IMG/VR virus record: IMGVR_UViG_2049941000_000100
Source: an uncultured virus (IMG/VR IMGVR_UViG_2049941000_000100)
Taxonomy: Duplodnaviria; Heunggongvirae; Uroviricota; Caudoviricetes
Length of the DNA stretch: 64,000 nt
Reading direction: 5' to 3' (one strand)
Numbering within the stretch: position 1 is the stretch's first letter; each line of letters starts with the position of its first letter. This document shows, piece by piece, positions 2 to 53,405 of this stretch. The notes beneath the pieces were generated by a model. It had not been told where the DNA came from. It saw only the letters and a list, made by a program, of their open reading frames with translations, and made no database searches. Made by a program: the position numbers and the translations under genes.

Positions 2-1600
2 ACTGGTACTGAATATAGTGATGTAGATTTAAATTCATTAAGTAGAAGCTTAACATATAATTTTAGAGTTGTTTATACTTGTAATAGTATATCTGCTAAT
101 AGTGGTAATACAGAGACGCGAACTAGAGCAATGGATATGACTCCGACAAATTTAAAAGTAACTAAGCAAAGTACTTCTAGTTATATTAATCCTTATACAG
201 ATACTATTTTTACTATAGAATTTGGTGGGTAGCCTACAGATTTTATTAATAATAATGATACCGCAGCAACGGCTTCAAGTAGAGTTTATCCAGCTAGTAC
301 TAAAACCATTTATTATGCTACCTTTAAATATGGAAATAATAACGAGGAAAATATTACGAATAATGCTGGGTCTAACAGTGGTGGAACTGTAACCATTCCT
401 ATGAGACTTGATAATTGGTCTACTGCCGATTGGATTAAATGTATTAATGGTATAGGTAGTACATCAGCACCAAATTATAATACGAGTACTACTGATGGGC
501 ATTATGATATTACTTTAACTGTTACAGCTAAAAATTCATTTGGCGAAACTTTTCCACAAACAAAAACAGTTTCTCTAAATTTTGCAGAAGGAATTTATAC
601 TGTTGGAACTGCTTCATTAGAAATGAAAATGTTTAATAATAGTTGGAAAGCTATACCATCTAGTTATAATGGTAAAACTGGCTTGAGCCGTTATCAAGCA
701 TTTGAGACACAGACTTTACGTATAAATTATAGCGGGTTAAAGACTTATGCTAATTAGACCGCTACAATTTCTCTTATAGAAACTGATAAGAATAATAATA
801 GTACGACTGTTGGAACTAAATAGATTACTGCTTCAGATTGGACGGCACCTTCTGGAACTGGAGTTAATAATCATGCGTATACTTTAACCAATAATTGTTA
901 GATTGAATATAAAATTCCAAAAACAACCGCTACTTCTTATAATACTTTAACAAAAAGTTATTCGTTATCTATATAGTTATAGAATGGTAAAAGTGGGACT
1001 TGCGCGAGTGGGAATAATTTAGATTCTATTTTCATTGTCAGAACCAACACTTTAACAATAACGCCTTAGGCGACTATATCTAGTAATTTTTCGTTAACTA
1101 GCGCTACATTAAATAATAATCAATTTTCAATAAATTGGAGCTGTTCAGATTTTGGAAGTATTAATCCTAGTGGTACTTCTACTAAATATAGCTCTGGTTA
1201 TTCTAGCGTTTCGGTGCAACTTAAGTATAGTGCCATGGCAAGTAGTGGGTATCAAAATTTAGGGAGTTCTTAGGTATTACTTGATAGAATGGTAAGCCCA
1301 GTTGTAGATAATTGTAGTGCTGGTAGTGGTTCTTTATCTGCTACTGCCAATATCAGTTTAGATACCATATATATAGGTGCTGTATTAACTGTAACTTAGA
1401 ATTTTATAAAAATAGACGGTGTTGCGCCAGCTGGCACTACAGTTTTTACTTACACTTGTTTAAATTAGAAGATTATATATAAAGATGTCCCTAATTTATT
1501 GTATGGAATAAATTTCTTTGCATTAAATGCGAATTAGCCTATTGGGGGAAAAACTGATTAGGTATTAGAGTTACATAGTACTAAAGATGGCACAAATTAG
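2..1600 (+). CDS. Ser/Thr/Asn-rich tail or virion-associated protein, internal fragment (TAG=Gln)
   Basis: Frame 2 is open from the window edge to the gap apart from TAG codons (e.g. 230, 755). Composition suggests beta-rich structure. Includes track ORF 401..757. Confidence 0.7.
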
Positions 1601-1610
1601 NNNNNNNNNN

Positions 1611-1743
1611 GGATAAGATAGATGAACTTAATAAATTAGAAGTAAATCTTAGTTATATCCCCGAATTTACTCTTGATGAATTAGAACCACTTAACTTAGA
1701 AATGAAGTATATAAGTCTTTTACTTCCATATATTAAAGATTAA
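1611..1743 (+). CDS. C-terminal fragment of a small acidic protein, probably the end of the gene that starts at 4031
   Basis: Reads DKIDELNKLEVNLSYIPEFTLDELEPLNLEMKYISLLLPYIKD* after a gap. Composition matches the 4031 N-terminus, not the preceding ORF. Confidence 0.5.
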
Positions 1744-21616: not shown

Positions 21617-23379
21617 TTAAAAACTAATATTTCCAATTTCCTCTATCTCAAGGTCTTTAATAAGAATCTGCGGAGTTATCTTAAAGTTCCACTCATTTAA
21701 ATTAGCAATCATTAGCCGTCTTAAANNNNNNNNNNACTTATTTTCATAACTCCATTAATATGGTTAATTTTCTCAATTAAATCTTTCGCAAAAAACTTTA
21801 TATAAGTCACTCCATTTACTTGGAATCTTAATGTATCTTTATTACGTCCAATAACCGCAATATCATTCTTAGTTAAATTTATATCGGTAACAAGTAAAGT
21901 AGGCTCGCTATTCTGTTGACCCCAAACAAATTCATATTGCGCGAGGTCTGCAATTAAACTTTTTAAATCTTCTGAATAACTATCGCGCGCGAAATCAACT
22001 ACATATAATAACTCTCCGAAATCTAAGTCTTTAAGTTCTCTATTTGCAATTTCATGGAACTTAGCTAAACTAGCGTTAGGAATACTAATACCGAACGCAT
22101 TATCATGGCCCATCGTATACTCAAATAAATTCGTACTATTTAAGAAGTCTTTAAACGATTTAAGTTCACTTTGATTAAGGCCGCGCGCACTTCCACGTAT
22201 ATAACCCTCATCATTCAAGCGTGCCACAATAGTTGGACAATTATGACGAGAAGCCAACTGCATCGCAACTAACCCGTTTAACTCTGCTGGGAAATCATCG
22301 TCGTCTTCGAGCCGGATAAATAAGACTTTATTTTCCAATAGGTCGTTCTTAGCGATTTTAATCTCTAAATTCTCTACTATTTCGTTCTTTTTTTTATCTT
22401 GATGCGCCTTTGCATTAGTACATTCTCTCGCGCTTTCAATAGCCGCAAATTCTAATGTGCCTTTAGCACCACGCTTATTGCTAGGAATTTTTTCTTTTCC
22501 ATTTATAAACGCATTAAATAAGCGGTCCTTCTCTGCGGGAGTACCCATTCTAATCATAGCATTAATCATAGGCACAATATAAAATGCGACGGTAGTAGGA
22601 TTAATTTTCCCTCCCATAGAATACTCTTGCTTATCGCAAAGAGTACGGAAGAAAAAATTATTTATATGCGTGAAACCGGTTCTCCAAAAATATTGATTTT
22701 CTTCCGAAAGTGCGCTCATCATATCCGCGCAAATACCTAATGCGGCTAAATCTATATATTTAAACGATAGCTCTTTTGCGAGATAATAGTCGAGCGCACG
22801 ACAGAATTGGTAAGTTACTCCTGCGCCAGATAAATCTTTATTTTCATAATTTGGAGAAATTTGGTTATTTACTATAATACAATAATCGCTTATCTTAGTA
22901 GAATCTTCAATTAAATGATGGTCGAGAATAATAGTTTTAATATTATGCTCGCCTAATTTCTCTATATACTCATAGTCGTTACTTCCACTATCGGGTAGAA
23001 GACAGATATCATAGCTTACTCCACTGTCTAGGATAGATTCGTGGGTGTCAGATAGCCCGTGCTGTTTACCTTCGTGGAGATAATAATCTATCTACGCATT
23101 AGGCGCGACTTCTCTTATATACTGGTATATAATCGCCGCAGATGTAAAACCATCAACATCGCTATCTACTACTAACGCGAACTTTGGCTTTTCTTTATTT
23201 AATATTTCTCGGACGTATTTTGCGGCCTCTTGAATATTTGAAAGGTCTAGCCAAGATTGGAGAGAATGTTCGTAAGAGGGGTTTAGAAAATGAACGATGT
23301 CTTCTATCCCACGACTTTTCAATAACTCTGCTCCATAGTTACTATATATATTTGTTGTGTCTTTTACTTCATACTTCAC
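21617..23379 (-). CDS. RecJ-like DHH-family ssDNA exonuclease (TAG=Gln)
   Basis: VDSDVDGFTS, GKQHGL, PDSGSND, ILDHH, LNGLVAMQLA, RGSARG, GHDNAFG. Confidence 0.9.
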
Positions 23380-24235
23380 CTAACAATAATTCTCCTTTTT
23401 AAAAGTTCTCTAAATACTTCTTCGCCCTTATCTGTAGGACTATCTTTCAAATCTAATAATCTTTTTCTATCATATATAAAGCTTATAGTACAATAGTTAG
23501 TATATTTCTTACAAAGAGAATATAGTTTATTAAAATACTTATTTTCTCCTTCTAATTCCTCTTGGTCAAAACAAATTACTATTTCGCGCGGCATACACGT
23601 TTTAATAAGTAAATTTAATTGATATTTATTAAACTGACTGCCGCAAACCGCAACACTACAATTCGGCATAGAAAAACTATCCATTTGCAAGCAAAACTTT
23701 TCTGCTTCACCTATATAACAGATTCCATATTTACGAATATTTTCTTTATTAAAATTTAATCCGTACAAATTCATACTAAGTGGATGTGCATACCACTTCC
23801 CCTCAATTTGAACCGGCATATATTTACCTACTAAAGCTATTTCATCTTTATTAAGGGCGCGCCCTCTAATTCCGACTAATTCTCCATAGACATTATAATG
23901 CGGGATTATAATTTTATTTTGAGATATTGAAAATCTAATATCATATTTATCCATAGCTTTTTTAGATATTCCATCCCTTAACCATTCTACTGGATAAGTT
24001 TTAATAAATATATCTAAAAGTCCCTTTGGATAAGTTTCTAAAATTTGCGGTTTACGCTGAATACGATATTTATCTTTTAAAGTTACATATTTCGGTGCAA
24101 CAAAACCTTCTACTGGTTTAAAATCAGAACAATTCTGAACAACTCGTAAAACGTCTGTCGTCCAATCATATGGAATACTTCTAGTTTCATAATAGTGTTG
24201 AAGAAAGCTAAATATACTCATACTATTACAACTAG
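23376..24235 (-). CDS. DNA primase (DnaG-like, TOPRIM), 5' end in gap
   Basis: IIIPHYN..GELVGIRGRAL, NLYGLN, EAEK, ICFD..KDSPTDKG. Confidence 0.85.
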
Positions 24236-24245
24236 NNNNNNNNNN

Positions 24246-25716
24246 TGTACCTAAATCTACATAAGACCAAATTCTTGTTTGAGTATAAACTCCACTTCTA
24301 ATCTTATAAATGTCTGTTACTATATTCGGTTCATGCGGAAAGATAGAAGACGCATCTTTTAAAACTTCTAGCTCTTCTTTTGTCGGTCGCGCCATTACTG
24401 CACCAACATCCGCCTTATTAATTGTTGAACGACCACCTGCTAATGAGCTTTCATTACGAATATTCTGATTGTCGTCACCCTTCGCATTTAACTGTGTTGA
24501 TGTCATTACACATACATTTTGTTCTACTGCTAAATCTTTTAATGCAGTTGCGAACATTAGAAGAACTTCGTCATTTCTAAGCGCAAACCCTTTAAATTCA
24601 TTTAATAACGATGGACCAATAAATATATAATCATAAAACACATAACTAATATCATAAATCAAACAATTTTCTCTTATAATATTCTTTACTAATCCTATCG
24701 TTGGATTCGGCATACGAACAATATGGAATGATTCTTTATATCTTTCCATTATCTCGATAGACTTCTTAATTACTTCTCTTTCTAAATCCGAAAAATTCCC
24801 ATATTTAAATCTATCTTCGTTTATCCCACTAATATATGCCAAAATCATTTTCTGAATTTCGGGGAAATCCTGCTCGGTTGCAATAAATAATACGTTCTCA
24901 TTATACCCTATTTGTTCCCATTCATTTGTACTCCATTCGTACCTAAATGGGTATGCAAGATAACACGCATCGCCCACTGCTTGACGAGTTTTACCCGTGC
25001 CACTGCCCGCACTTCGAATATATAATGCTCCCTTGCGCGCGCCACTAACTACTGCGTTGTAGATTCTTCCTTGAAGTGGCATACCAATACCACTATAACC
25101 TTCTTTCATATTATCGAATAATTCTTCGATACCTTGCGCCGCACTTCTCGTCTCTGTTACATCATTCTGAAGATATATATTTTCTAAACCTAATAATCGT
25201 TTCTTAACTCCATCGACTATATCTTGGATAGTTAAATCTTCAAACTTACTATTAACATCATATAAGACCGACGCCAAGCTCTTGTGGANNNNNNNNNNNN
25301 NNNNNNNNNNNNNNNNNNNNNNNNNNNNNNNNNNNNNNNNNNNNNNNNNNNNNNNNNNNNNNNNNNNNNNNNNNNNNNNNNNNNNNNNNNNNNNNNNNNN
25401 NNNNNNNNNNNNNNNNNNNNNNNNNNNNNNNNNNNNNNNNNNNNNNNNNNNNNNNNNNNNNNNNNNNNNNNNNNNNNNNNNNNNNNNNNNNNNNNNNNNN
25501 NNNNNNNNNNNNNNNNNNNNNNNNNNNNNNNNNNNNNNNNNNNNNNNNNNGCGCTCCATTATTATATAAGTTATTTATTGCAGCAAATATAGTTTTTTCA
25601 AAAGTAGAACTAAAATCTTGGACAGTTAAATTATATTTTTCTGTTTCAGTTAATATACTTGGCTTCTTAATTAATCCACCCAATACTTGTTGAATACAAC
25701 TTTTATCAACTATCAA
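24246..25716 (-). CDS. DnaB-like replicative helicase, gapped
   Basis: Walker A AGSGTGKT, FIATEQ, VFYDYI, TSTQLN, KADVG, IYKIRSG. Confidence 0.9.
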
Positions 25717-25818
25717 GTCCTACCTCCATTATACTATTTAAATCTATTTCTTTCTTTCTCTTTTGAGTTTTAATAGGATTATATTTTATTGGCTCGTGGG
25801 GTTTTTTTNNNNNNNNNN

Positions 25819-26238
25819 AATATTATTTTCTTTTAATAAAGATTCTACAATATTCTCTCCATTTGAGGACCTTTTACATCCACAAGAACTTATATTATTT
25901 CCGGTTAACTATTTACTTTTAATAATAATTTCTTTACCACAGTCACATTTGCATAAATAAGCAACATGAGGACCAATATTATCTACTCTTTTTATAACAG
26001 TTAAATATCCAAATCTTTTCCCTGTTAAATCAATCCAATTATTTTTTCCAACTGTTTTTCCATAGCAACCGCAAGACTATGTGTGCCCACTTCGTAAATA
26101 CGTACCGGTAACTATAGTTTTATTACCACAATCACAAAGACATTTCCATCTAGCTTGTCCTCTAGAGTCACTCTCTACTCTTTTAATTACAACTAAATGG
26201 CCATATCTATTTCCAGTTTCATCTATAACTTTACTCAT
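25819..26238 (-). CDS. Zn-finger repeat (CxCDCG..SCGC) homing-type endonuclease, 3' end in gap
   Basis: ETGNRYGHLVV..WKCLCDCGN..LRSGHT[TAG]SCGC, repeated twice. Confidence 0.8.
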
Positions 26239-26249
26239 ATATAATTTCC

Positions 26250-26333
26250 TCCGAATGAAATTAAATAAAGGTGAGACTTGCTTTCGGACGCATTATCTCG
26301 AAAGTTAATTACTCTTTCGCTTCTCTCAACTTT
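26250..26333 (-). ncRNA. Candidate cis-regulatory RNA: three-way junction with SD-overlapping pseudoknot, copy A
   Basis: P1-GAAG-P2-AGAUAA-P3-AG-P1'. P3 loop UCCGAA pairs with UUCGGA at the RBS. Same architecture at 52216..52304. Confidence 0.65.
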
Positions 26334-26341
26334 CTATAATA

Positions 26342-26370
26342 ATTATATCACGATTTTAATAAAAATTCAA
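26342..26370 (-). promoter_or_regulatory. Sigma-A promoter directly upstream of RNA element A
   Basis: TTGAAT-N17-TATAAT with extended -10. Confidence 0.75.
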
Positions 26371-26385
26371 ATTTTNNNNNNNNNN

Positions 26386-26636
26386 CCTTTGCACGTCATT
26401 CCATTTTTAATAAAGTTCTGAATCTGCGCATGAATCTTATAATAGTCGTATGAAACTTTGAGATCGCGCGCTATATAATCAAATATCAACGGTTCATAAT
26501 CAGAGTCAGATTTAATTTCTTTACCTTCTTTAAACTTACCATAACACGTCTTATGAAAATACCAATTACGAGAAGGCATGACCCAATCGTCTTTAGATTT
26601 ATCTATTTCTTGTTTACATACTCTACAAATCGCCAT
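26386..26636 (-). CDS. Zn-finger hypothetical protein, truncated by gap
   Basis: MAICRVCK..YFHKTC; GGGAG RBS; promoter TTGACT-N17-TATAAT at 26666-26694. Confidence 0.7.
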
Positions 26637-28781: not shown

Positions 28782-29045
28782 TTACTCTTCGTCATCGCTG
28801 GGGACAAAAGTCTTGCCGGCTTCAGTCAGGAAGATGTACTTGGCGGGCTTATCAGAACCTTCTACGGGGACCTTCTCATAATCCAAGAGACCCTTCGCGC
28901 GCTCACCCTTCACACCAAGACCGGTAACAACGGGATTGAGATGCTTCGCATCGCTATTCAGCGCAGCGCAGAGCTCCTCCATACTTACGCGTCCACCATT
29001 ATCACGGATATAGGAAAATACCAAATTCTGCTTCTCCGTAAGTTT
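28782..29045 (-). CDS. Small winged-helix-like protein, 5' end in gap
   Basis: VFSYIRDNGGRVSMEELCAAL..GLLDYEK..YIFLTEAG. Confidence 0.65.
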   Translation of the reverse strand, partial: KLTEKQNLVFSYIRDNGGRVSMEELCAALNSDAKHLNPVVTGLGVKGERAKGLLDYEKVPVEGSDKPAKYIFLTEAGKTFVPSDDEE

Positions 29046-30014: not shown

Positions 30015-32375
30015 TTAAATTTTCTCTAACCCTACCACATACTCATTTGCATTAAGTTTTATCGTTTTAACGCCCTGCGCGCTTCGAGATAGAGTAGGAA
30101 CCTCAGTTAGTGCAAATCGAATTTGGGATACATTAGAGGTAACGATTAAATCGGTCTCATTAGTAATTCCCTCAAACGCTACTACTTCGTCTCCTTCAAC
30201 TGTACCTTGGAGTTTACTTCCTTTAGTATTACGATTAGTATATGAGAACTCAGAGATAGGAGTTTGCTTTGCCAAGCCCTTCTTCGTTACAGATATAATC
30301 GTCTTTGTCTCATTACTTAGAGGGCGCGCGCCTTGTACGTATGCACCAGCATTTAATTTCATACATTTAATACCTTTTGCAATACGTCCAACTGCCGCCA
30401 CATCATTTGTCTTAACCATAATAAAGTTTCCATCGGAAGAAAGAATACCACAATCAGTATCGTCATTACCGAAGAAAACCGATACAATACTATCGTTATC
30501 CTCTAAATTAATCGCTCGCGCGCTATTACCACGTTTAAGGTAGTACTCGGATAAAAGCGATTTCTTTAAGAGTCCATTTCTAGTAACAAAATAAATATTT
30601 TTATTTGTATTTTTTGCGTAGATAGCGGCGTTACAAATATTTTCATTATTTATCGTAGTCACATATTGGGAAATATAAGTTTTCTCGTTAATCGGGAGGT
30701 CACTAAGTTTTACTTGGAAGAAGTTCCCACGATTAGAGAAGAATAGTGCAACGTCGGTTGTATCTCCGATTTCTGTCCCAACTACATATTCTCCTTTTTC
30801 TAGCTTAAGTTTTGTACCTACTCCGCCACGTCTTTGAGAGTATAGAGTTGAACTTTCGGTTACGAAAATTCCGCCTTTATTTGTAAAACTAAGAATAAGA
30901 TTTCTAACTTCTGTAGGTTCTTCTTCGCTTTCGGTTGAGATATTTAGAATTTTAGTGCGGCGCGCATCACCGAATTTAGCCGCTACATCTTTCCATCCTT
31001 TAATAAGTTCATTATTAAATAGAATTTCGTCGCCTAAAATTTGTTCGAGCGCACTAATTTTTTCAAGTAAGTCATTTTTTTCGCCGTACAGCTTAGTTAC
31101 CTCCAGATGGGCTAATCGGCTCAATCGGAGTTCGAGTACTGCTTTCGCTTGGTCAGCATCAAGAAGAAATTCCTTTTGAAGTCGCGCACTAGCTTCTGCG
31201 GTAGAACTCGACGTCTTAACTACTTCGACTACTTCTTCAATACGAGCAATACAAACTAGAAGTCCATCGATAATATGGACGCGGAACTTCATCTTATTCA
31301 GATCATGTTCAAAACCACGACGATATACAACCTTCTCGTGGTCAATGTGCGCTTGAAGTGCCTCGCGCCATGTAAACACTTTAGGATATTTACCACCATC
31401 AAGCATAGTAAGGTTAATACCATAGTAATACTGGAGCGAAGTATTTTTATATAAATACTTTAATACCTTATCTGGATTTGCTTTCTTTGTAAGATAAATC
31501 TTAATCAACGGTGTCGCGCCAGTTAAGTCATTAAAGCGTTCAATTCCAGGGTTGTCTTCTGATTCTATGAGTTCTTCAAGCTGTTTACAAATAGTATTTG
31601 TATAAACAGAATAAGGAATTTCTTTTACTACAAAGCATCTTTCAGCCGCATCAAATTCAACAACACTTCTCAACTTACAAGCTGGTCCATTACCAACACG
31701 CAGGCTTTCCTTTACTTCATCTGCATTAAGCAAAATTGCACCAGTGGCAAAGTCGGGCGCGCAGTAAATATCATCAAAATCGCAGTCCGGATTTTGAATA
31801 AGATTAATAAGTGCATTATTAAGTTCTTTTAGATTAAACTGCGGGATAGAACTTGCAAGACCTACTGCGATACCGCTTGTACCATTGCAAAGATTATAGA
31901 ATCCTTTTGATGGAAGAACTGCGGGGTATTGTTTAGTATTATCATAGCTATCGCGCCACTCTGTAATAGTATCTTTATCAATATCTGTAAAAAGAATATT
32001 AGAAAGTGCGGACAGACGACTTTCTGTATAACGCATAGCAGCCCAGTTACCACTTTCAATAAGAGAGCCAGAGTTACCCTTTACATCTACGAGTGGATAG
32101 CGCATAGCGAATCTTTGTCCGGCGCGCATAATAATTCCTTCACAGCTTGAATCGCCATGAATATAGAAATCTGCCATAGCCATACCAACAGCATTGGCGG
32201 TTTTCTTATAAGGATTATTATGGGTAAGTTTATGAAGAAGCATTGAATAAAATATTTGGCGCGCAGAAGGCTTGAGTCCATCGCGCGCGTCAACAAGTGC
32301 GCGAGACTGAATTACCATGCCCGCGTATTGTGCAAAAGATTCTTTTATTATATTATTTAATTCACTCATTTTCAT
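30015..32375 (-). CDS. gyrA: DNA gyrase subunit A
   Basis: DARDGLKPSAR, HGDSS, AAMRYTE (catalytic Tyr), PDFATG, GyrA-box QRRGGVG, C-terminal beta-pinwheel repeats. Confidence 0.95.
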   Translation of the reverse strand: MKMSELNNIIKESFAQYAGMVIQSRALVDARDGLKPSARQIFYSMLLHKLTHNNPYKKTANAVGMAMADFYIHGDSSCEGIIMRAGQRFAMRYPLVDVKGNSGSLIESGNWAAMRYTESRLSALSNILFTDIDKDTITEWRDSYDNTKQYPAVLPSKGFYNLCNGTSGIAVGLASSIPQFNLKELNNALINLIQNPDCDFDDIYCAPDFATGAILLNADEVKESLRVGNGPACKLRSVVEFDAAERCFVVKEIPYSVYTNTICKQLEELIESEDNPGIERFNDLTGATPLIKIYLTKKANPDKVLKYLYKNTSLQYYYGINLTMLDGGKYPKVFTWREALQAHIDHEKVVYRRGFEHDLNKMKFRVHIIDGLLVCIARIEEVVEVVKTSSSTAEASARLQKEFLLDADQAKAVLELRLSRLAHLEVTKLYGEKNDLLEKISALEQILGDEILFNNELIKGWKDVAAKFGDARRTKILNISTESEEEPTEVRNLILSFTNKGGIFVTESSTLYSQRRGGVGTKLKLEKGEYVVGTEIGDTTDVALFFSNRGNFFQVKLSDLPINEKTYISQYVTTINNENICNAAIYAKNTNKNIYFVTRNGLLKKSLLSEYYLKRGNSARAINLEDNDSIVSVFFGNDDTDCGILSSDGNFIMVKTNDVAAVGRIAKGIKCMKLNAGAYVQGARPLSNETKTIISVTKKGLAKQTPISEFSYTNRNTKGSKLQGTVEGDEVVAFEGITNETDLIVTSNVSQIRFALTEVPTLSRSAQGVKTIKLNANEYVVGLEKI

Positions 32376-47994: not shown

Positions 47995-49332
47995 ATGGCG
48001 ACGATGACATTGCATCCAACTCAGCTTAATAATGCTGCCAGTTCATATTTAACTATTACTGATTAGAATAATATGTATACCGATACAAGCAGTACTACAT
48101 ATGCTACTATTCAGAATACGAACGCTTCAACATCCAATAGATATATTTATCTTAAAGGATTTAATTTTGATGATCTTCCTACCGGGGCCGAAGTAAGTTC
48201 TTTTACTGTTAAGATAAAAGGTTATTATAGCGGTGGTTCACAGCAAACTTTATATTTGTGTAATAATACAACCACGCAAACAGGAGCAACGGCTACGGGT
48301 TTAACAACAACAACCAAAACCAGAGAATTTTCAAAAGGCTCTTTAACCTGGGACACTATAAGCAGTTGGGGAGATAATTTTTCAATAAGAATAAACTGTA
48401 GAAGAGGAAGCAGAAATACGGTAGCATACTATTATATTTATGGTGCTGAGATCGAGGTTACCTATACATTACCGGTCTTCTATGATATTACAACTTCCAC
48501 AACTACTGGAACAATTTCTCCGTCAGGAACAACTTCTGTGAGAGAAGGAGAAAATTTTACTCTGACTATAGAAGCCAGTAATCCTACAGTAACCGATAAT
48601 AATATTGATGTTACTTCTCAGATTCAGAGAATAACTGATAGTTCTACAACTTATATTCCTTACGATTATTCAAATACAGGATTTAATATAAGCAATATCA
48701 ATAATGCATATAGTGATATTACCGATTCTACTTATGCAGATTGCAGTTTATCAGGAAAAACAACAGGGAACTTATATTTGGTTCTAGGACCTGTTAACCT
48801 TCCATCCAGTGCAACGATAACCAATATTACATGCTAGGCCAGTTTATAGATAAGTAGGAATGGTTCATCGTCAAGTATGACTGCTTCATGCCAGATGTAT
48901 AGTGGGAACACATCAAAAGGTTCTTCAACTACATTAGTATCAAGTGCATAGGACGTTGCTCGTACAACATACACGCTTAATATAGGTAGTTGGACCGCTT
49001 CGGAATTGGAGAATGCTCGTTTTTACTTGACAATGTATAACGGAGCCTCAAGTACTGTAAGACATGTATATGTTTATGGTATTTCTTTTACTATTACATA
49101 TACCATAAGTGGTGAAGTTTATACTTATACACTAACCAATGTAAGAGTTAATCATACGATTATTGTAAATGCGGGGTCTGCCCCTAGTAAAAAAATTTAT
49201 GTGAAAATTAATAATACTTGGACTCAATATTCAAAAATTTATAAAAAAGTTAATGGGAGTTGGGTTGAGTAGTCTAGTTCTACTTGGGCGACTCTATTTG
49301 ATACAAATACAAATTATAGAAAAATGGAGTAA
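47995..49332 (+). CDS. Virion-associated beta-rich protein (TAG=Gln)
   Basis: Joins track ORFs 48073 and 49006; C-terminal IYVKINNTW..IYKKVNGSW motif. Confidence 0.8.
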
Positions 49333-52215: not shown

Positions 52216-52304
52216 AAACGGGTAGCATAAGGGTCGCGCCCTAAGTGAGATAATGTGCCATAACACAAGCCGTTTAATAAATATAATAAATATTTTTATG
52301 GAGG
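52216..52304 (+). ncRNA. Candidate cis-regulatory RNA: three-way junction with SD-overlapping pseudoknot, copy B
   Basis: AAACGG-GUAG-P2-AGAUAA-UGUG CCAUAA CACA-AG-CCGUUU; loop CCAUAA pairs with UUAUGG (52296-301), which overlaps GGAGG. Confidence 0.65.
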
Positions 52305-52309
52305 TATTT

Positions 52310-53405
52310 ATGAAACTTCAAATTTTAGTTCCCCAATATCACGAAACAGGCGAAATTATTAAACCTTTATTAGATTCAATNNNNNNNNNNAAACAGACGA
52401 AATTATTAAACCTTTATTAGATTCAATCGCATTACAATAGGCAGTTTCTATGGAAGAAATAGGAGTTATAATTTGTAATGATGGGTCAGATGTTCGTCTT
52501 TCAGAAAAACTTTTAAATTCTTATCCTTTTAAAGTTGAATATTATCTTGAGCCTCATCGTGGCGTAAGTGGCACTCGTAATGCATGTTTTAATCATGCGA
52601 CCGCAGATTATGTAATGTTTTGTGATGCGGATGATATGTTCTGTAATGTATGCGGTTTATGGATAATATTTAGAGAAATGCAAGGGAATGGGTTTGATAG
52701 CTTAGTTTCGGTATTTATTGAAGAATCACGTCTTCCGCAAGATATGCCTGAGCAAAGAGATTAGATGGGGAATGTAGTGATGCCCGCTATGAAAAAGGGC
52801 AGTCCAATGTTTATTAACCATGATATGGATTCAACATTTGTCCATGGAAAAGTTCATCGTCGTCAATATTTACTTAACCAAAATATTCGTTGGAATGAGA
52901 AGCTTACTATCCATGAAGATAGTTTCTTTAATATCCAATGCTAGAATCTTTCAACAAATGTAAAGTATTGCTAGACGCCATTTTATTTATGGAAATGGAG
53001 AGATGAAAGTGTTTGTCGGCATGACCCGAAATATATACTTNNNNNNNNNNAACTTATAAAAATATGATTGATAGTAACGATGCGCTTGTAGATGAATTTT
53101 TGAAGCGTAACGTAAAAAATAAAGCTATGTTCTTTACTGGGTTCCTTATTTTTGATGCGTATTATTTAATGAATAAACCTGAATGGCGCGATTAGGAAAA
53201 TAAATAATATAGAGATAGTACGGAAAAATATTTTGCAAAGTATTATAAAAAGAGAAAGAAATTATGGAATCAAATTTCTGATAGTGATAAAATGCAAATA
53301 TCTAACCAAATTCGTACTCGTTCGGTAAATGAAGGAATGATGATGGAGAATGTTACGATTGACAATTGGTTAAAACATATTGAAAAACTTAACAAAGATA
53401 GATAA
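52310..53405 (+). CDS. Family 2 glycosyltransferase (TAG=Gln; gaps; in-frame TAA at 53205)
   Basis: LQILVPQYHE..LLDSI..ICNDGSD..GVSGTRN..YVMFCDADD..VHGKVHRRQYL..HEDSFFN. Confidence 0.85.

Follow-up and report, generated by a model that had tools for sequence, protein, structure and literature searches.

A three-way-junction RNA with a loop complementary to the Shine-Dalgarno site precedes a glycosyltransferase gene and an HNH-family gene in an uncultured phage

The window, i.e. the whole stretch of 64,000 nucleotides analysed here from an uncultured virus of the Caudoviricetes, harbors two similar putative leader RNAs, referred to as copies A and B. Copy A is found on the minus strand, between a promoter-like site and an open reading frame of the HNH endonuclease family, and copy B on the plus strand, directly ahead of a family-2 glycosyltransferase gene (Table 1). 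The initial annotation had described copy A as a promoter followed by three helices, their junctions and a loop complementary to letters overlapping the Shine-Dalgarno (SD) sequence, and direct reading of the minus strand recovered every one of these items letter for letter.

Table 1. Coordinates of the features of copies A and B in the window.
Feature	Position	Strand	Description
Copy A ORF, visible part	25817..26238	-	Zinc-ribbon repeat protein, HNH endonuclease family
Copy A gene start codon	26236-26238	-	ATG
Copy A Shine-Dalgarno	26248-26252	-	GGAGG, overlapped by UUCGGA
Copy A pseudoknot 3' strand	26250-26255	-	UUCGGA, complements UCCGAA
Copy A three-way junction	26267-26333	-	Direct reading, model matches, alignment A7
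Copy A P1	26324-26333 with 26267-26276	-	AAAG-u-UGAGA/UCUCA-c-CUUU, one bulge per side
Copy A J1/2	26320-26323	-	GAAG
Copy A P2 arm	26299-26319	-	CGAAAG/CUUUCG, 26314-26319 with 26299-26304
Copy A J2/3	26293-26298	-	AGAUAA
Copy A P3 arm	26279-26292	-	UGC/GCA, 26290-26292 with 26279-26281
Copy A P3 loop	26282-26289	-	8 nt
Copy A pseudoknot 5' strand	26283-26288	-	Loop letters UCCGAA
Copy A J3/1	26277-26278	-	AG
Copy A promoter-like site	26342..26370	-	-35 TTGAAT 26365-26370, 17-nt spacer, -10 TATAAT 26342-26347
Copy B three-way junction	52216-52275	+	Minimum-energy fold, model matches
Copy B P1	52216-52221 with 52270-52275	+	
Copy B J1/2	52222-52225	+	GUAG
Copy B P2 arm	52226-52247	+	
Copy B J2/3	52248-52253	+	AGAUAA
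Copy B P3 arm	52254-52267	+	Loop CCAUAA 52258-52263
Copy B J3/1	52268-52269	+	AG
Copy B pseudoknot 3' strand	52296-52301	+	UUAUGG, complements CCAUAA, overlaps GGAGG 52300-52304
Copy B gene start codon	52310-52312	+	ATG, family-2 glycosyltransferase, PF00535, E 1.6e-12

The gene behind copy A had been taken for a homing-type endonuclease. Translated with TAG read as glutamine (Q) at its two in-frame TAG codons, the product matches the phrog_374 'HNH endonuclease' group (E 1.9e-39) and shares 45% identity with the N-terminal portion of a protein of 231 aa at locus L095, the C-terminus of which is HNH-like by eye and has no Pfam match. The window does not show the nuclease domain, because the frame is cut by a 10-N scaffold gap (25807-25816). 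This gap and a second one (26376-26385) delimit a piece of 559 nt (25817-26375), the nuclease cassette, which is flanked by the N-terminal (26386-26636, minus strand) and C-terminal (25717-25806, minus strand) parts of a RING-like zinc-finger gene. In the sister contig G002, with flanks 74-84% identical, the same site is the uninterrupted coding sequence of one gene and holds no cassette. Either the RING-like gene is split by the cassette, in the manner of free-standing homing nucleases, or the scaffold combines cassette-bearing and cassette-free variants; in both cases the cassette is a presence/absence polymorphism.

Both 10-N runs, as well as the one at 52381-52390 and others, have the character of scaffold gaps; the two sides of the run at 52381-52390 repeat some 40 nt with a single difference, and the position of the nuclease cassette between two gaps is consistent with strain variation there. 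A homologue of the copy A gene in another phage contig is closely followed by a group I intron (RF00028, 50.3 bits; L102, 1836-2087). Also, the phage reads TAG as an amino acid, and translation of this codon as Q joins many fragmented frames into long ORFs, examples of which are 25786-26238 (minus), 52310-53067 (plus) and 131-1645 (plus). Three glycosyltransferase homologues (L054, L055, L178) carry TAG at the conserved Q of their N-terminal MKLQIL motif. The codon is absent from the replication genes (23376-25559 and 30015-32375) and occurs many times in the 38-64 kb region. The window and contigs G001 and G002 yielded no suppressor tRNA. One end of G002 carries nine clustered tRNA genes (L197, 150-2010).

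The promoter-like site of copy A is of the extended type, with TG ahead of the -10 box, and agrees with the consensus at 10 of 12 positions. Sites of this kind are not above chance in so AT-rich a stretch, where five were found against 5.9 expected from shuffles. The transcript start proposed earlier, near 26335, fits the position of the -10 box. The promoter module of copy A recurs elsewhere in G002 with 93% identity over 54 nt (31781-31885; L194, 1501-1605), together with the first letters of P1 and ahead of another gene, a homologue of the window ORF 28782-29024; at that place a simple hairpin, closed by the P1 letters, stands without P2 and P3. A promoter-like site within copy B (52260-52287) was set aside, being by eye not conserved among the relatives.

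Members of the family were gathered by a pattern scan for relatives of copy B, two protein-guided scans of viral contigs and one metagenome scan, exact patterns serving as queries in the large sequence collections. Ten distinct members were obtained (A, B, L001, L008, L056, L061, L176, L178, L180 and L182), all of them from phages or metagenomes. Model R1, a covariance model based solely on L008 and L061 from two other phages, returned exactly two matches in the 64-kb window at E<=10, namely copy B with 47.7 bits and copy A with 14.7 bits (E 0.058). With a second model, R2, built from the nine members other than copy A and run with filters off, copy A scored 22.8 bits (E 2.8e-5) and the next match in the window 10.3 bits. 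A hand-written structural descriptor, applied to 589,115 bases comprising the window and the loci, detected family members and nothing else, and had no match in five shuffles.

The architecture that the two copies had been said to share is thus recovered by models built without copy A. At the level of sequence comparison, these results confirm that copies A and B belong to one RNA family, which is real and conserved beyond what chance would produce. A fortuitous likeness of two AT-rich leaders could be argued from the marginal first score of copy A and from its lack of a close homologue in the pattern scan of viral contigs and the model scans of the loci. This notion is refuted computationally by the R2 score, the covariation of the stems, the loop-SD matches, the unaided RNAalifold prediction and the silence of the descriptor in shuffled sequence, and its probability is negligible.

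Several other candidates were discarded. A junction-like match in the window at 48400-48483 (plus strand; R2 10.2 bits, E 0.76) lies in a long ORF with no SD partner nearby and is probably due to chance. Weak matches at L093, L150 and L199 were read and rejected, and the one match of the copy-A-type pattern in viral contigs was judged a chance one on reading. When four whole related contigs were scanned directly, each contained one copy, always in the glycosyltransferase leader; a further 12.9-bit match in these contigs turned out to be coding DNA and was rejected. The copy-B-type pattern had no match in 185,579 species genomes, nor did blastn find any in cultured phages.

The secondary structure was evaluated in a ten-row alignment fitted to the model (A7), several rows of which are close relatives. 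Standard pairs occupy 97.4% of the stem cells, and compensatory changes, i.e. on both sides, occur at 11 of the 16 pairs, values that were reached in none of 500 shuffles; when the partners were slid by 1-3 columns, pairing dropped to 32-51%. These counts are inflated by shared ancestry, the family being small and several of its members near relatives. RNAalifold, unaided, arrived at the same three helices and junction, with 15 pairs, 10 of them compensatory. P1 is 4-6 bp long across the family and reaches 10 with a bulge in copy A. The interior of P2, consisting of an A-A mismatch, a purine bulge and GGG/CCC, is conserved in eight of the ten members, with covariation at two pairs, and P2 is a plain hairpin in copy A and L056. 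For copy B, the junction is itself the minimum-energy fold. Copy A taken alone does not favour it, since the minimum-energy fold of its core has -10.9 kcal/mol against -10.2 kcal/mol for the three-way junction, and its 112-nt leader adopts a different minimum-energy fold of -22.9 kcal/mol.

The P3 loop of all ten members has a perfect complement of 6-8 nt, located 10-21 nt downstream of P1 (11 nt in copy A) and ending inside the SD of the next gene. Five loop spellings are found (CCAUAA, CCUAUUU, CCUGUUU, CUCCUAC and UCCGAA), so that the pseudoknot changes on both sides, as had been proposed from the comparison of UCCGAA:UUCGGA in copy A with CCAUAA:UUAUGG in copy B. The matches were counted by script, the MAFFT alignment not being column-consistent. 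Loops confronted with the leader of a member of another spelling reached 6 nt in 3 of 72 cases, and shuffled leaders did so in 2.5% of 10,000. Predicted energies of the loop/site duplex range from -5.4 to -10.9 kcal/mol across members (-7.4 kcal/mol in copy A). In most of them only the first GG of GGAGG falls within the helix. A consistent second site for the loop was not found in the leaders of the members, which contain only scattered AT-rich second matches of 5 nt.

Occlusion of the SD, the role suggested at first, would be the most economical function for such an arrangement. We lean, with slightly better than even confidence, towards the element being a portable cis-acting damper of translation initiation. 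Its layout would be P1, G-N-A-G, P2, A-G-A-Y-(N)-A-A, P3, R-G and the return strand of P1, with a P3 loop of 6-7 nt pairing with letters that enter the first two to five of the SD. The resulting pseudoknot would hide the ribosome-binding site and lower translation initiation of the following gene, while the invariant junction would set the geometry, or bind a factor, so that a weak helix forms reliably. Repression would most likely result from the pairing itself and be intrinsic rather than triggered by a signal. As only two letters of GGAGG are paired in most members and the helix is weak, it may be mild. The letters of loop and site can change in concert, which would make the module portable between genes.

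A role outside translation, as a 5' stabiliser, a processing signal or a trans-acting small RNA, is suggested by several features of the leaders. P1 of copy A begins 1-2 nt past the predicted transcript start, in G002 the corresponding position behind the promoter module is taken by a plain hairpin, and the element of L176 (474-618) has its start in the final bases of a tRNA-Tyr gene, so that 3' processing of the tRNA would create its 5' end. Also, the Rfam family int-alpA, discussed below, is classed there as a small RNA. We consider such a role very unlikely, because it leaves unexplained why in ten of ten members the loop follows the letters next to the SD of the gene it precedes; besides, no terminator was found after the element. 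Pairing-based damping remains the preferred account.

The genes found behind the ten members are eight family-2 glycosyltransferases, identified by PF00535 in the window and by homology in the others, the HNH-family protein of copy A and, in L176, a PD-(D/E)XK endonuclease (PF11645, 48 bits). Occurrence of the element at these genes is sporadic: most of 80 examined loci of glycosyltransferase homologues have a short leader without it, and none of 80 examined loci of copy A gene homologues carries it. The proposal that it travels with mobile endonucleases therefore finds a partial echo, in the nuclease-type genes behind two of ten members (A and L176) and in the int-alpA RNA directly ahead of homologues of the copy A gene in 4 of 49 contigs, and is at odds with its absence from those 80 loci. 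The tally of downstream genes, two nuclease-type against eight glycosyltransferases, also does not uphold the view that the element was co-opted at the glycosyltransferase gene. The core of copy A (J2/3-P3-J3/1) most resembles the B/L001 subtype of the phage lineage to which it belongs, with 19 of 23 letters shared with L001, and hence the direction of spread could equally well be the reverse; we infer that the nuclease cassette may have borrowed a resident leader. Autoregulation by the encoded protein, which had also been envisaged, is unlikely, given that one core is found ahead of the genes of three unrelated proteins.

In all ten members the same eleven junction letters are kept while the stems vary, namely G-A-G-C of G-N-A-G-C, G-A-G-A and A-A of G-A-G-A-Y-(N)-A-A, and the G of R-G. 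A tentative pair is that of the Y in J2/3 with the leading G of GNAG, such pairs being added by ViennaRNA in constrained folds. Invariance of this extent exceeds the needs of a passive scaffold and fits a bound ligand or protein. If the junction were an aptamer for a small molecule, such as a signal derived from a nucleotide and reporting the state of infection, binding of the ligand would stabilise or release the loop-SD pseudoknot, and the RNA would be a new riboswitch class, as it matches none in Rfam. The expression platform would then lie within the fold, as in preQ1-II/III and SAM-II/V riboswitches, where the folded core includes pairing of a loop or tail with the SD. The A/B element resembles these SD-sequestering pseudoknots in having the SD pairing built in, and differs from them in that the genes it precedes are metabolically unrelated and that the elements have no Rfam riboswitch match at E<=10. 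A glycosyltransferase, an HNH-family protein and a PD-(D/E)XK nuclease have no common metabolite, the junction core is small, and a conserved alternative fold was looked for and none was seen. We regard a riboswitch as unlikely.

Alternatively, a phage or host RNA-binding protein could recognise the junction and control the leader-bearing genes as a regulon. One conserved core ahead of unrelated genes in a single phage (copies A and B) would be expected of such an operator, and the purine-rich junction, together with the P2 internal loop conserved in eight of ten members, resembles protein sites. Yet no candidate protein co-occurs with the element, the sister contigs have a single copy, the conserved P2 interior is missing from copy A and L056, and the three unrelated downstream proteins exclude autoregulation in practice, all of which makes an operator unlikely. 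Equally doubtful, in our opinion, is that the invariant junction acts as a sensor of infection stage, responding to a small molecule or to a phage or host factor and gating the translation of accessory genes. Were this true, the element would establish a new class of programmable switches in phages, with int-alpA as a sister class of the same superfamily, and its retargeting would need only a loop of 6-7 nt to be rewritten to the ribosome site of the new gene. Intrinsic damping by the pseudoknot is thus retained as the working interpretation.

Comparison with Rfam 15 yielded no match at gathering score in the whole window and only chance-level matches on the elements, none to a known riboswitch family. 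The best match over copy B and its SD, cow-rumen-4 (RF02948), attains 15.9 bits (E 1.6) against a gathering score of 48.5 and was dismissed as chance; the interior of its first hairpin has 12 nt, compared to 48 nt in copy B. The model of int-alpA (RF02996, gathering score 35.8 bits) gave nothing at E<=10, either in stretches of 97-401 nt around copies A and B or in five whole contigs carrying an A/B-type element, and had no match in 50 contigs with glycosyltransferase homologues. It did match 7 of another 50 contigs searched, all seven among the 49 that carry homologues of the copy A gene, and in 4 of these 49 (L095, L100, L122 and L123) the match immediately precedes the homologue. Conversely, the R models of the A/B family did not match at the int-alpA loci.

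We take int-alpA to be a candidate RNA from comparative genomics. Within the literature searched, no functional study of it was found, it goes unnamed in the main text of PMC5737381, and the int/alpA region of CP4-57 in E. coli K-12 contains no match to the model. Its consensus consists of P1 (8 bp), UA, P2, GAAAA, P3, CU, the return strand of P1 and a U run, with a P3 loop complementary to a downstream AAGG. Both RNAs are phage-borne three-way junctions of about 60-70 nt in which P1 encloses two hairpins, J2/3 is purine- and A-rich and J3/1 has two nucleotides; both occur directly ahead of copy A-type genes, and in seven int-alpA instances the P3 loop is, by eye, complementary to a downstream SD-like site. 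However, the junction letters are UA / GAAAA / CU in int-alpA and GNAG / AGAYNA(A) / RG in all ten members of the A/B family, the long GC-rich 8-bp P1 and the U run of the former contrast with a short P1 and no U run in the latter, and two loop sites are seen by eye in int-alpA (a 'decoy' and the SD) against a single one here. By the RF02996 model the A/B element is not a member of int-alpA, and it probably represents an unrecognised sister or analogue of it. In addition, a leader preceding a glycosyltransferase homologue at L029 (785-843) has a three-way junction with UA and GAA junctions as its minimum-energy fold, and two matches to its P3 loop, one immediately past P1 and one at the SD; the leader is int-alpA-like by eye, and RF02996 does not match it.

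The A/B family widens the int-alpA layout by a second junction type that is missed by the Rfam model, and extends it to stop-codon-recoded phages of animal-gut metagenomes and to a non-nuclease gene, the glycosyltransferase. This points to a class of leader RNAs broader than presently catalogued. The finding appears solid but incremental, the element being rare, with ten distinct sequences found. Accessory genes, selfish nucleases included, need low or well-timed expression in phages, and a portable RNA would be a general answer to this need. Also, a target set by a few loop letters would make the element a compact and reprogrammable translation-control part for engineering.

The closest functional parallel is offered by the homing endonucleases of T4-type phages. 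There, structures that sequester the ribosome-binding site are described as limiting translation of I-TevI, I-TevII, I-TevIII and mobE (the last from Aeh1), and probably of T4 segB (PMC3014915). These hairpins and the A/B element have in common that a structure in cis hides, or would hide, the ribosome-binding site of a nuclease gene. The T4-type hairpins are simple, local and gene-specific, and some are relieved by a late promoter inside the hairpin. In contrast, the A/B family would offer a separate loop to the SD from a conserved branched scaffold, one that is shared with non-nuclease genes.
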